Shown: positions 54,307-58,158 of the stretch, one piece after another | Numbering within the stretch: the stretch's first letter is position 1 | How the letters are laid out: each line of letters starts with the position of its first letter | Assembly: GCF_013122565.1 (NCBI RefSeq) | Contig: NZ_CP053258.1 | Strand: one strand, 5' to 3' | Origin: Escherichia coli | GTDB taxonomy: Bacteria; Pseudomonadota; Gammaproteobacteria; Enterobacterales; Enterobacteriaceae | Length of the DNA: 64,000 nucleotides | Position numbers and translations under genes: made by a program | The notes under the pieces: generated by a model | Told to the model about the DNA's origin: nothing | Databases searched by the model: none | What the model saw: the letters and a program-made list of their open reading frames with translations, nothing else

Positions 54307-54520
54307 ATGCTTCAACAACATAAGGTTAGCCTCTTACTCGTTGGAAATCAACACAGGAGGCTGGGAATGCCGCAGAAATACGGATTACTATTCGTTAATA
54401 GTGATTTGTTTCACGCTTTTATTTTTCACCTGGATGATAAGAGATTCACTGTGTGAATTGCATATTAAACAGGAGAGTTATGAGCTGGCGGCGTTTTTAG
54501 CCTGCAAATTGAAAGAGTAA
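54307..54520 (+). pseudogene. hokA: hokA locus (Hok-family membrane toxin), apparently frameshifted and separated from its upstream region by IS150
   Basis: Hok C-terminal domain SLIVICFTLLFFTWMIRDSLCELHIKQESYELAAFLACKLKE is encoded to the stop at 54518..54520, but the Hok-type start MPQKY (ATG 54367) is in the +1 frame and reads MPQKYGLLFVNSDLF... to a stop at 54454. An overlapping mok-like frame starts at ATG 54307. Confidence 0.55.
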
Positions 54521-54679
54521 GAGTCTTCGGCGGGAAATTATTCCCGCCTTTCTTACGGTGTTGGGTATTCTCAATGCACCCTAATTTATTTCTTTAATGA
54601 ATGTTTTTTTTAAAAAATACGCATGGATTTGGCTATTAGATAAGTTTTTAATCGGGAACAGGAATGGTTCGGAGCCTTC

Positions 54680-55051
54680 ATGAATAAACTGCTTTTACTG
54701 TTGATAATGCTTTATCAACGACATCTTTCTCCTCGCAAAGGATACCGCTGTGCTTACAGTGTGTTGTACCAAACGCAGGGATGTTCGGGAGCAGTCAAAG
54801 AGATTATTCAACAGAAAGGTGTTATTGCAGGCTGGGGCGATATACGTCAGCGTTTTGCAGATTGCCGACTTGCGGCAAAGACAATCAGGCAGAAGCAACA
54901 CCTGAACGAGGTAATACGTAAAAAGAAGAATAATGATTGTGATTGTTCCGGGTGTGATGGTGCGGTCTGTCGTGATTGCGACATTCCGGTGCCGGATCTG
55001 GATTGTTCCTGGGACTGTTCTTCTCTACATTTAAAGCGGTTTTTCCAATAA
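54680..55051 (+). CDS. YidD-like (DUF37-like) protein with cysteine-rich C-terminal tail
   Basis: 123-aa ORF MNKLLLLLIMLYQRHLSPRKGYRCAYSVLYQTQGCSGAVKEIIQQKGVIAGWGDIRQRF... resembles the YidD core as I recall it (YQxxISP..G..CRF.P.CS...G.IKG.W); tail NNDCDCSGCDGAVCRDCDIPVPDLDCSWDCSS holds 8 Cys; GGAG 8 nt upstream. Confidence 0.5.
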   Translation: MNKLLLLLIMLYQRHLSPRKGYRCAYSVLYQTQGCSGAVKEIIQQKGVIAGWGDIRQRFADCRLAAKTIRQKQHLNEVIRKKKNNDCDCSGCDGAVCRDCDIPVPDLDCSWDCSSLHLKRFFQ

Positions 55052-55055
55052 AAAA

Positions 55056-55092
55056 ATCCCCGCCAAATGGCAGGGATCTTAGATTCTGTGCT
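55056..55092 (-). terminator. Rho-independent terminator of cspA
   Basis: On the minus strand, stem atccctgcc / ggcggggat (one G-U pair) followed by a U-run; directly 3' of the cspA stop. Confidence 0.7.
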
Positions 55093-55104
55093 TTTAAGCA
55101 GAGA

Positions 55105-55317
55105 TTACAGGCTGGTTACGTTACCAGCTGCCGGGCCTTTAGCGCCGCTTTCGATGGTGAAGGACACTTTCTGACCTTCGTCCAGAGATTTGTAACCATC
55201 GTTCTGGATAGCAGAGAAGTGTACAAACACGTCTTTAGAGCCATCGTCAGGAGTGATGAAGCCGAAGCCTTTGTCAGCGTTGAACCATTTTACGATACCA
55301 GTCATTTTACCGGACAT
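55105..55317 (-). CDS. cspA: Major cold-shock protein CspA
   Basis: 70-aa [73 protein letters not shown]. Confidence 0.98.
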
Positions 55318-55480
55318 AGTGTATTACCTTTAATAATTAATTGTGCCTTTCGGCGATATGGCGTGCTTTACAGATTTTTGAAGCGTTAAAGGAAATGCAC
55401 TACGAGGGGTATCAACGATAACTCTTGAAGAGGACTTGCCTTACTACACTGCTTTAATGGTCTGTACGTCAAACCGTTGA
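55318..55480 (-). promoter_or_regulatory. cspA long 5' UTR (cold-box / thermosensing leader) region
   Basis: cspA is known to carry a ~160-nt structured 5' UTR; extent assigned from that knowledge, not resolved base by base here. Confidence 0.5.
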
Positions 55481-55598
55481 TGTGCATTAAGCCACGCATT
55501 GGCGGGTGATGCAACAATTATTTTTCATATTTATGATTAATCGGTTGGAAAACGGTCCTGTCATCAGGACCGTAAACAGCAATAAAGTGGATAAAAGT

Positions 55599-55889
55599 CT
55601 ATTCCATCAACTGCTTACTTAATGCCGGGTTGGCTTGAATCAAACGCATCAATTTTAGTTCGGCACTTGAAGGCTTCACGCGTCTGGATTCCCATTCCTT
55701 TACCATGGCGACGGATACGCCCAAAACCCGGGCGAAATCATCGATTTTTAATCCTGTCCCTTTTCGTAACTGCTCAATTTCGGTACAGGACGTTGTTCTG
55801 TGCGTCAGGGTAATTTTCTGCGTTTCATCTTTAAAAACAATCTGTTCCAGGCTGCTCAACAGCTCATGCATTGGATCTTTATATTCCAT
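55599..55889 (-). CDS. yiaG: XRE-family HTH protein YiaG
   Basis: 96-aa ORF MEYKDPMHELLSSLEQIVFKDETQKITLTHRTTSCTEIEQLRKGTGLKIDDFARVLGVSVAMVKEWESRR... Confidence 0.85.
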   Translation of the reverse strand: MEYKDPMHELLSSLEQIVFKDETQKITLTHRTTSCTEIEQLRKGTGLKIDDFARVLGVSVAMVKEWESRRVKPSSAELKLMRLIQANPALSKQLME

Positions 55890-56321
55890 TGAAAACTCCT
55901 CAAATCACACTGCGGGATCGTGAATTGCATCGAAGCTCATTAAGAATAGTCGGGAAAAGCAGACTCAGCGGGTGAAGTCAGGGCATGCTCTGGCTTTGAT
56001 TCGATTCAGCCTGTCATTTAGCGTGACTTATAGCCACCTAACGATCTGATAAATGCCGATATATCTCTTACCACTCCTGTTTTGTAAAGATTTCGAAAAT
56101 CTAACCTTCTGCGAAGGCGTAAATCGCTGGCTACAAAAAAGGCAACGGCAATATCATTTTTTAACAATGAAACAACAAATTAACCTTGTTTCATTTTCTC
56201 CATGATTTTACCAGGAAGATTACGTAGAAAGGGTATCCTGCAAGCCTGTCCTGGACTATCCTTGTCACGTCAGACACGCGTGTGTCGTTGTGCGCTTTTT
56301 TTGGGTGAAAGGAGTAAGAAA

Positions 56322-57032
56322 ATGGCGACAGGAAAGTCCTGCTCTCGCTGGTTTGCGCCTCTTGCGGCGTTATTAATGGTAGTTAGCCTGAGTGGGTGTT
56401 TTGATAAAGAAGGCGATCAGCGTAAAGCGTTTATCGACTTCCTGCAGAATACAGTGATGCGTAGCGGTGAACGTCTACCAACCCTGACTGCCGATCAGAA
56501 AAAACAGTTTGGTCCTTTTGTCTCTGATTACGCGATTCTGTATGGTTATTCTCAGCAGGTGAATCAGGCGATGGATTCCGGTCTGCGCCCGGTCGTAGAC
56601 AGCGTTAACGCAATTCGCGTACCGCAGGATTACGTTACGCAAAGCGGTCCGCTGCGTGAAATGAACGGTTCTCTGGGCGTACTGGCGCAACAGCTGCAAA
56701 ATGCGAAGTTGCAGGCCGATGCTGCGCACTCTGCGCTAAAACAGAGCGATGACCTGAAACCGGTCTTTGATCAGGCATTCACCAAAGTGGTGACGACGCC
56801 AGCTGATGCATTGCAACCGTTGATTCCGGCGGCACAAACTTTCACGCAACAACTGGTGATGGTTGGAGACTACATTGCTCAGCAAGGTACTCAGGTGAGC
56901 TTTGTAGCAAATGGCATCCAGTTCCCGACTTCACAGCAGGCAAGTGAATATAACAAACTGATTGCGCCATTACCGGCACAACATCAGGCGTTTAATCAGG
57001 CCTGGACTACAGCAGTTACTGCAACCCAATAA
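56322..57032 (+). CDS. yiaF: DUF3053 lipoprotein YiaF
   Basis: ORF track 56202..57032; start trimmed to MATGKSCSRWFAPLAALLMVVSLSGC (lipobox LSGC), 236 aa. Confidence 0.85.
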   Translation: MATGKSCSRWFAPLAALLMVVSLSGCFDKEGDQRKAFIDFLQNTVMRSGERLPTLTADQKKQFGPFVSDYAILYGYSQQVNQAMDSGLRPVVDSVNAIRVPQDYVTQSGPLREMNGSLGVLAQQLQNAKLQADAAHSALKQSDDLKPVFDQAFTKVVTTPADALQPLIPAAQTFTQQLVMVGDYIAQQGTQVSFVANGIQFPTSQQASEYNKLIAPLPAQHQAFNQAWTTAVTATQ

Positions 57033-57037
57033 AGAGT

Positions 57038-57062
57038 AAAGCCCGAGCGATTATCGGGCTTT
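57038..57062. terminator. Bidirectional terminator between convergent yiaF and ghrB
   Basis: Stem aaagcccga (57038..57046) / tcgggcttt (57054..57062), loop gcgatta. Confidence 0.7.
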
Positions 57063-57080
57063 ACTCCACGCAGTCGCGGC

Positions 57081-58055
57081 TTAGTCCGCGACGTGCGGAT
57101 TCACACAGTTCTTCTCAACCTTTCCTTGTAACGCTTCAATCAAATTATCCACGGCACAGGCGGCCATGCCATAACGCGTCTCATGGGTGGCAGATCCAAT
57201 ATGCGGTACTGCGACGACGTTGGCCATTGAGAGCAACGGCGAATCTACGGACAGTGGCTCTTGTTCGAAAACATCCAGCCCGGCGGCGTGAATTTCGCCT
57301 TTCTGCAATGCAGCAATCAGTGCATTTTCATCAACCACCGGGCCACGTCCGGCATTAATGAAAATGGCGGAGGATTTCATTTTGGCGAATTGTTCTGCGC
57401 CAAACAGATGATGCGTCTCATCCGTTAACGGCAGGATCAGGCAAACGAAATCTGACTCTTGTAACAGAGTATCCAAATCGCAGTAGCGGGCGTTGAAGCG
57501 TTCTTCGGCTTCTTTATGGTGGCGGCGCGCGTTATAGAGGATGGGCATGTTGAAGCCAAAGTGCGCACGTTGTGCCAGCGCCATACCGATCCGTCCCATC
57601 CCGACAATGCCCAGTGTTTTATGGTGAACGTCAGTGCCGTACCAGTCCGGGCCTATGCTCGCGGTCCATTCGCCTGCTTTTACCCGTTCTGCTACCTCCA
57701 CAACCCGACGAGCGGTAGACAACACCAACGCCATCAGCGTATCGGCGACGGTTTCTGTTAATATAGTTGGCGTGTGCATCAGCAGAATTTTTCGGGCGGT
57801 AAGCGCATCGACATCAAAATTGTCATAGCCGACGGAGATCGTTGATGTGGCACGCAGTTTAGGCATTTTTTCCAGCAATGCGGCATCAACATTCTCGTTT
57901 GAACCCAGTAAACCTTCAGCTTCTGCAAAAATTGCTGCATTTTGTTCGACGGTGTGTGGGCTGAGGTTTGCCACCTGGTGAACGGTGAAATGCTCTTGCA
58001 GGCGTTGCAGTAAATCATCAGGTAAGGCTTTGTAGAGGATAACGGACGGCTTCAT
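57081..58055 (-). CDS. ghrB: Glyoxylate/hydroxypyruvate reductase B (2-ketogluconate reductase)
   Basis: ORF track 57081..58067; start taken at [19 protein letters not shown] (324 aa); D-isomer 2-hydroxyacid dehydrogenase motifs (GIVGMGRIG). Confidence 0.9.
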
Positions 58056-58158
58056 GCTTCTCTCCATTCACAGATAAGGCGATCACCTTAGCCTGAAATA
58101 TGATGAAGGAAAACTGAAGAATGCCAGGTGATTTCTGCATCACCTGGCATGAAAGGAA

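Follow-up and report, generated by a model that had tools for sequence, protein, structure and literature searches.

An inverted repeat upstream of Escherichia coli yiaF as a candidate leader stem-loop separate from the adjacent T-run

Introduction

The 5′ UTR hairpin of ompA, reportedly described by Emory, Bouvet and Belasco in 1992, is said to typify the stabilising stem-loop located at the 5′ terminus of an mRNA. The inverted repeat upstream of yiaF in Escherichia coli resembles this type in that a stem is predicted near the 5′ end, with a single-stranded U-rich segment and the ribosome-binding site following it, and in that structure is kept better than sequence. It differs in having a stem of only 5 bp, about 3-8 unpaired 5′ nucleotides and a 5′ end that is itself predicted, and the stem has been lost in several genera. 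Intrinsic terminators and attenuators share with the yiaF element an inverted repeat and a run of seven Ts (T7) on one strand, flagged by a consensus scan, but the conserved yiaF stem is located 9 nt before the T-run, and the stems that do abut the run are weak and rich in G·U pairs. The palindromic operators of helix-turn-helix (HTH) dimers are comparable as regards a 14-bp dyad just past a -10-like element with a divergent HTH gene, yiaG, nearby, whereas the arms of the yiaF dyad are asymmetric, their spacing varies in distant relatives and the site is single. FourU RNA thermometers are known from the Salmonella agsA type. A U run at yiaF is likewise predicted to pair with the AGGA of the Shine-Dalgarno sequence, but, unlike in that system, the run is not conserved where the Shine-Dalgarno is, and the pairing is at the level of low-complexity background.

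Here we report the sequence, conservation, pairing and genomic context of this element in a 64,000-nucleotide stretch of E. coli DNA, called the window, to which all coordinates refer unless K-12 is named.

Materials and Methods

The comparative sample consisted of 80 species-level yiaF loci from Enterobacteriaceae, which gave an alignment of 64 distinct sequences. Eleven more divergent loci were added via protein homologues; ten of them had a recognisable leader, and in the remaining one (L095) the upstream sequence differs. For the count of stems and T-runs over the 91 loci, any short G+C-rich stem near the block was accepted, and not hairpin A specifically.

Results

Gene order in the window is cspA, yiaG, yiaF and ghrB, an Escherichia-type arrangement, with the following genes around the element:

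55105-55317, minus strand: cspA, from the open reading frames of the window
55599-55889, minus strand: yiaG, annotated as an HTH regulator gene, divergent from yiaF
56322-57032, plus strand: yiaF coding sequence, 236 amino acids, a DUF3053 lipoprotein (PGAP in four strains, Pfam PF11254 and the translation)
57081-58067, minus strand: ghrB, convergent with yiaF

In the RefSeq annotation of four diverse E. coli strains, yiaF is a 711-nt gene encoding a DUF3053 protein of 236 amino acids, with an ATG equivalent to 56322. The yiaG-yiaF spacer (432 bp, 55890-56321) is present in 5,422 of the 5,426 complete RefSeq E. coli genomes, among which identity to the window over 55880-56340 was at most 98.9%, and the mismatches consist of one 1-nt indel and SNPs, all in the yiaG-proximal half. 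A comparison of five diverse E. coli strains likewise placed all spacer SNPs in that half; 56152-56340 was invariant and the element identical. The gene has been treated as a single-gene operon whose mRNA is visible by northern blot (Kasari et al., PMC3598666). It is also the second strongest CpxR-modulated gene, with a 5.9-fold effect (7.7 by qRT-PCR; Bury-Moné et al., PMC2731931), and therefore yiaF has a regulated promoter of its own. The lipoprotein YiaF has been implicated in colonisation resistance (PMC3646849).

Several features of the surrounding genes were also recorded. The gene at 55105-55317 is labelled cspE by PGAP in all four RefSeq records; it was assigned here to cspA because its leader matches the Rfam cspA thermoregulator at 481 bits. 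Between hokA and cspA, a 123-amino-acid open reading frame (54680-55051, plus strand) resembles YidD at its N-terminus and is rich in Cys at its C-terminus; strain ST2747 has it annotated as yidD, and a K-12 derivative carries IS150 and a truncated hokA at this place. A strong 13-bp hairpin at 57034-57066 (-22.9 kcal/mol), located between the convergent stop codons of yiaF and ghrB, is a likely bidirectional terminator; it lacks a long T-run and is missed by the consensus scan. A Rho-dependent termination region has been mapped antisense to yiaF, at about window position 56689 on the minus strand (K-12 3718677, plus strand; Adams et al.), and probably stops read-through from ghrB. On the other side, Term-seq placed a 3′ end 18 nt upstream of the yiaG open reading frame (about 55907, minus strand; U00096.3 3719460, plus strand), and further ends inside yiaG (3719662) and just downstream of it (3719819) (PMC7815308), which suggests premature termination or processing in a long yiaG leader. 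No copy of yiaG was found within 1.5 kb upstream of yiaF in 28 of the 80 loci, belonging to Klebsiella, Raoultella, Kluyvera, Pseudocitrobacter, Atlantibacter and some Citrobacter (including L010, L011, L014, L020 and L025), and these loci carry upstream of yiaF a TTGTGA-N6-TTAACA motif that appears CRP-like by eye.

An open reading frame of 276 amino acids, starting at ATG 56202, runs through the element, and the earlier note had argued that this extended yiaF start is not real. The comparison agrees with it. PGAP uses the short start, the sequence upstream of the yiaF ATG is read in three different frames across genera, an in-frame stop is found four codons upstream of the ATG in 15 of the 80 loci, and the 236-amino-acid product has a lipoprotein signal peptide at its very N-terminus, with the lipobox LSGC at the end of that peptide. 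Judged by these sequence comparisons, the extension is not conserved as coding sequence and the short start is confirmed.

The palindrome is located 36-49 nt, and the T-run 20-26 nt, upstream of the yiaF ATG, as had been described earlier. All features of the leader are on the plus strand:

56231-56241: upstream block GGGTATCCTGC, with the first TATCCT copy at 56234-56239
56250-56265: block CCTGGACTATCCTTGT, the most conserved piece, with the -10-like TATCCT at 56257-56262
56268-56271: predicted yiaF transcription start, 6-9 nt downstream of the -10-like hexamer
56273-56286: hairpin A, GACACGCGTGTGTC, with arms GACAC (56273-56277) and GTGTC (56282-56286) and loop GCGT
56289-56295: conserved TGTGCGC spacer between hairpin and T-run
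56292-56295: GCGC, as read from the sequence
56296-56302: T7 run, the U-rich tract of the leader
56310-56314: Shine-Dalgarno AGGAG, 7 nt before the ATG, within the nearly invariant GAAAGGAG

As a bare pattern the palindrome is only mildly unusual: the window has a single copy of the perfect 10-mer ACACGCGTGT, against 0.11 expected and with at least one copy in 11 of 100 shuffles, and GRCAC-N4-GTGYC occurs twice against 0.25 expected. Terminator-like matches in 55500-57300 numbered four versus 2.1 ± 1.4 expected, i.e., chance level. The folding of the region, which the earlier note had proposed as a check, gave energies equal to those of shuffled sequences (z from -0.5 to +0.5). A covariance-model search of 54500-57500 against Rfam found nothing at 56200-56330, even at E values up to 1, and its sole significant match was the cspA thermoregulator at 55050-55478. 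On the comparative evidence, it is conservation and not the rarity of the pattern that makes the element real as a feature.

Alignment of the 80 loci revealed a conserved block of about 105 bp, from about 56216 to the ATG, with a sharp boundary beyond which the spacer is unalignable. Within it, the inverted repeat is kept in 74 of the 80 loci and GGTATCYTGC (56232-56241) in nearly all of them, as well as in most of the divergent loci. The -10-like block ACTATCCTTGT is invariant or nearly so in the 64 distinct sequences; in divergent genera it reads ACTATYCTT, with TATACT in a 60%-identity homologue, and its distance to the ATG is 58-70 nt across loci. In the TGTGCGC spacer, the 64-sequence alignment shows no change at T55, G56 and G58 and hardly any at C57 and C59 (positions numbered on the first sequence), and GTGCGC is also kept in Shimwellia and ESL0689, both of which are without hairpin A. 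Outside the block, about 100 bp (56089-56195) are Escherichia-specific, shared in part with Salmonella and gapped in most other genera. At 56166-56195 this stretch contains a perfect 10-bp inverted repeat, AATGAAACAA/TTGTTTCATT, with TTTCT after it, and its palindrome at 56104-56118, ACCTTCTGCGAAGGC, is picked up by the scan as a terminator-like minus-strand element. The stretch may be an insertion restricted to the lineage, or it may act as an operator or encode a small RNA.

Pairing in the inverted repeat was analysed over the alignment. The register conserved among species is a 5-bp stem, GRCAC-N4-GTGYC, represented in E. coli by GACAC/GTGTC with a 4-nt loop; the perfect palindrome ACACGCGTGT is specific to Escherichia and, on this comparison, is a coincidence beside the conserved register. 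In hairpin A, 96.3% of the cells were paired, compared with 24-73% when the partner was slid by 1-3 columns, and none of 500 shuffles reached the observed value. The predicted energy is -6.2 kcal/mol and the median ensemble probability in the predicted leaders is 0.80. At the second pair, 42 loci have G-C, 26 have G·U and 8 have A-U, and A·C never occurs. According to the yiaF gene tree, the left-arm change from G to A has three origins (Escherichia, Klebsiella grimontii and Phytobacter massiliensis), and in all three the right arm already had T. The occurrence of GC, GU and AU without A·C is the strand-asymmetric pattern that would be expected of an RNA stem on the plus strand. This covariation support is modest, as it comes essentially from one base pair.

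Stem-loops of other sequence were found at the same place in more distant genera. Hairpin A starts 10-12 nt after ACTATCCTTGT. In its place, Cronobacter has a different stem, GCACAC-N8-GTGTGC; Mangrovibacter a CGCG-CUUG-CGCG tetraloop hairpin; Entomohabitans the stem CGGCAC/GUGCCG; and P0102 the stem ACAUA/UAUGU, which is A+U-rich and below the rule of at least three G-C pairs. That a stem-loop recurs while its sequence and loop size change points to an RNA structure and away from a DNA operator of fixed spacing. Hairpin A is absent from Shimwellia, ESL0689, JGM124, Atlantibacter and two Citrobacter species; since these lineages keep yiaF, it is not essential.

The same losses, together with folding that equals shuffles, a pattern only mildly rarer than chance and a GT repeat that yields many alternative weak pairings (controls slid by ±2 reach 73-86% paired), would be accounted for if the element had no dedicated function, the dyad being a by-product of a GT/CA-rich initial transcribed region kept for promoter escape or for another promoter-proximal reason, and the T-run an AU-rich spacer that favours ribosome binding. 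The three origins of A-U, each with the partner T present beforehand and never passing through A·C, and the stem-loops of different sequence at the same site in divergent genera stand against this explanation and make it unlikely.

An operator was considered for the same dyad. The earlier note had listed a protein-binding site among its options, and this part of the proposal still has a dyad at fixed distance in its favour, with half-sites that are unequal and kept without an adjacent yiaG on the other side. The proposal would be that GRCAC-N4-GTGYC, at about +10 of the yiaF promoter, binds a dimeric factor that represses or modulates yiaF, the candidates being the divergent HTH protein YiaG or an envelope-stress regulator. 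It is consistent with the location of the 14-bp dyad right after the -10-like block (spacing varying by 0-2 nt in the 64 close sequences), with an almost invariant left arm, with a GCAC...GTGC core in several divergent loci, with the presence of yiaG (an XRE/HTH_3 regulator) as divergent neighbour in 52 of the 80 loci, and with the response of yiaF to CpxR levels. The half-sites, however, were not equally constrained (3 changes in the left arm versus at least 12 in the right), one-sided changes were always G·U-compatible, and the spacing of the arms was not fixed, being altered in Cronobacter (8 nt) and Mangrovibacter. Nor did the dyad co-occur with YiaG as the adjacent candidate regulator: it is intact in 51 of the 52 loci with adjacent yiaG and in 23 of the 28 without it (adjacency being what was scored), and this retention weakens the idea of a YiaG operator. 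The yiaG-yiaF spacer contains no second copy of the dyad. The CpxR consensus is GTAAA-N5-GTAAA, which the dyad does not resemble, and no cognate factor for the dyad was found. An operator thus appears rather unlikely as the explanation of the element; the excess conservation of the left arm is nevertheless greater than RNA pairing alone predicts, and a DNA-level role for that arm is possible on the pattern of changes.

The T-run did not follow the hairpin among species. It starts 9 nt after the end of hairpin A, measures 3-8 nt in the 80 close loci and 2 to 8 nt across all loci, and is interrupted in Citrobacter and Kosakonia. Combinations found in other lineages were as follows:

Siccibacter and Entomohabitans: hairpin A kept, T-run lost or interrupted
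Cronobacter: different stem, no T-run
Mangrovibacter: CGCG tetraloop hairpin, T4
Shimwellia and ESL0689: hairpin lost, T7 or T8 kept
JGM124: no hairpin, no T-run
P0102: A+U-rich stem only, no T-run

Over the 91 loci, 68 had a stem and a T-run of at least 5, 19 a stem only, 2 a T-run only and 2 neither. The independent loss of hairpin and T-run argues against a terminator.

The terminator of an upstream transcript that the earlier note had suggested found no support: as yiaG is divergent, there is no upstream co-directional transcript to terminate, and the stems next to the T-run are weak and without covariation. Its alternative, an attenuator, would act as a weak intrinsic terminator or a pause site on transcripts starting further upstream, through a composite interrupted hairpin (56263-56294, -9.8 kcal/mol) that ends 1 nt before the T7. 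The consensus scan does flag the element, in E. coli the composite hairpin and U7 are arranged much as in a terminator, the CGU/GCG pairs on its outside are conserved, and 56 of the 91 loci qualify under a lenient rule with G·U pairs admitted. Watson-Crick stems, on the other hand, pass in only 6 of the 91 loci. Stem B (GCGUGUG/UGUGCGC, 56278-56295), which abuts the T-run with three G-C and four G·U pairs (-3.2 kcal/mol), was paired in 87.4% versus 87.3% in shuffles, and stem D (GCACGC/GUGUGC) in 85.2% versus 85.4%, being broken in Escherichia itself; neither stem shows covariation, a third of the species have them broken, and both were rejected. The outer CGU/GCG helix, which RNAalifold also proposes, never varies and is uninformative because it is invariant, and its 5′ strand overlaps the region just after the -10, so that it would be missing from a transcript starting at about 56269.

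In terms of the properties of a terminator, no stable G+C-rich stem was found (fold z-scores of about 0), hairpin and U-tract were not conserved together with covariation of the stem, and the element is neither downstream of a co-directional unit nor in a leader with premature 3′ ends. It is far weaker than true terminators such as those of the cspA region (-18.4 kcal/mol, two hairpins) and the 3′ hairpin of yiaF (-22.9 kcal/mol). Published Term-seq data, which the earlier note had named as a check, contain no 3′ end at K-12 3,718,900-3,719,399 in three conditions, at low sensitivity, and none assigned to yiaF from 200 nt upstream of the open reading frame to the stop codon (PMC7815308). This negative is weak because the 3′ end of the yiaF terminator is itself absent from the list. 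Taken with the failure of the abutting stems in the covariation tests, an attenuator or pause site is very unlikely.

A further role for the T-run would be to mask the Shine-Dalgarno through pairing of CUUUUUUU with GAAAGGAG, as a fourU-like thermometer or a site of sRNA/Hfq control, with hairpin A as a neighbouring module. This pairing appears in the minimum-free-energy folds of E. coli and many other genera, the median probability of an unpaired Shine-Dalgarno is 0.43, and Hfq typically binds where a U-tract follows a hairpin. Pair counts were, however, at the low-complexity background (90.1% versus 89.7% in shuffles, 64-81% in slid controls), the T-run is broken or absent in Citrobacter, Kosakonia, Cronobacter, Siccibacter and Entomohabitans with the Shine-Dalgarno unchanged, and the Rfam search gave no thermometer match, all of which makes masking quite improbable. 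The RNAalifold consensus of the leader was very weak (-3.2 kcal/mol); it pairs UCCUU of the invariant block with AAGGA, as an anti-Shine-Dalgarno, and neither side varies.

The position of the yiaF promoter was also considered. Bacterial transcription generally starts 6-9 nt downstream of the -10 hexamer, and with TATCCT at 56257-56262 as a putative -10 element this gives the predicted start at 56268-56271. The conserved 56231-56241 then occupies the -35 region of this putative promoter but has no match to the sigma-70 consensus for that element; it may be a contact site for an activator or RNA polymerase. A sigma-70 promoter scan found nothing at the yiaF leader. No entry for yiaF or its coordinates was found in the published start data of ROSE, SMRT-Cappable-seq, Kim 2012, Romero 2014 and Conway 2014, nor a yiaF start among the Cappable-seq rows listed. 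Compared by eye with consensus sequences, the region had no convincing match to sigma-E, sigma-32, sigma-28, CpxR, RcsB, OxyR or NarL sites, and the GG and GC elements of a sigma-54 promoter were one base too close. The best resemblance seen by eye was to a sigma-S-like -10 (CTATCCTT versus CTAYRCTT).

TATCCT occurs twice, at 56234-56239 and 56257-56262, 23 bp apart and both times in conserved blocks. This duplication in the absence of a recognisable -35 is unusual and may reflect tandem promoters or an activator site. A candidate BaeR box at 56194-56211 (TTTTCTCCATGATTTTAC versus the published TTTTTCTCCATDATTGGC) was rejected for its four mismatches and is probably due to chance, its 12-nt core being found in E. 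coli proper only; an RpoH SELEX peak reported between yiaF and yiaG (PMC5493296) is weak, and too poorly resolved to be of use.

Discussion

The reading that we favour, at a probability of about 0.45, is that the element represents a small conserved stem-loop close to the 5′ end of the yiaF mRNA, which is monocistronic and Cpx-inducible, with a U-rich spacer and then the ribosome-binding site after it. Transcription would start at about 56268-56271, just after the TATCCT at 56257-56262, and the inverted repeat would fold as a 5-bp stem-loop (56273-56286) a few nucleotides from the mRNA 5′ end, to be followed by the GUGCGC spacer, the U-rich single-stranded tract and the Shine-Dalgarno. The stem-loop would probably tune the stability of the mRNA 5′ end or the initiation of translation, and the U-tract would serve as a ribosome-friendly spacer; the two would not form one functional unit and would not terminate transcription. 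We infer the yiaF transcription start from the sequence, and with it the existence of the stem as RNA and its physiological role.

Against this leader model stand the lack of a recognisable -35 at the proposed promoter and the failure of the consensus scan there, as well as the shortness of the stem, in a region whose folding energies equal those of shuffles. A stem preceded by 3-8 unpaired 5′ nucleotides would offer at best partial protection from RppH or RNase E. The structure was kept by compensatory change, as for an ompA-type leader, which lends the model modest support.

A more elaborate version would make the yiaF leader a post-transcriptional switch in envelope stress, in which hairpin A alternates with competing pairings, namely that of the right arm and GUCGUUGU with the start region AUGGCGAC and that of the U-tract with the Shine-Dalgarno. 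How much of the Cpx-induced lipoprotein is made would then be set by temperature, by a protein or by an sRNA acting with Hfq. Such a switch is highly improbable.

A palindrome and a T-run seen together by eye are insufficient to call a terminator, and at yiaF the two evolve independently, the conserved stem being one feature and the T-run another. The element alone matters little, and the comparison tidies the annotation of one poorly characterised gene. The analysis also locates the likely promoter of a Cpx-responsive gene, in the form of the -10-like TATCCT and the conserved upstream block, and yiaF appears to have a small conserved leader stem-loop that is cheaply testable.
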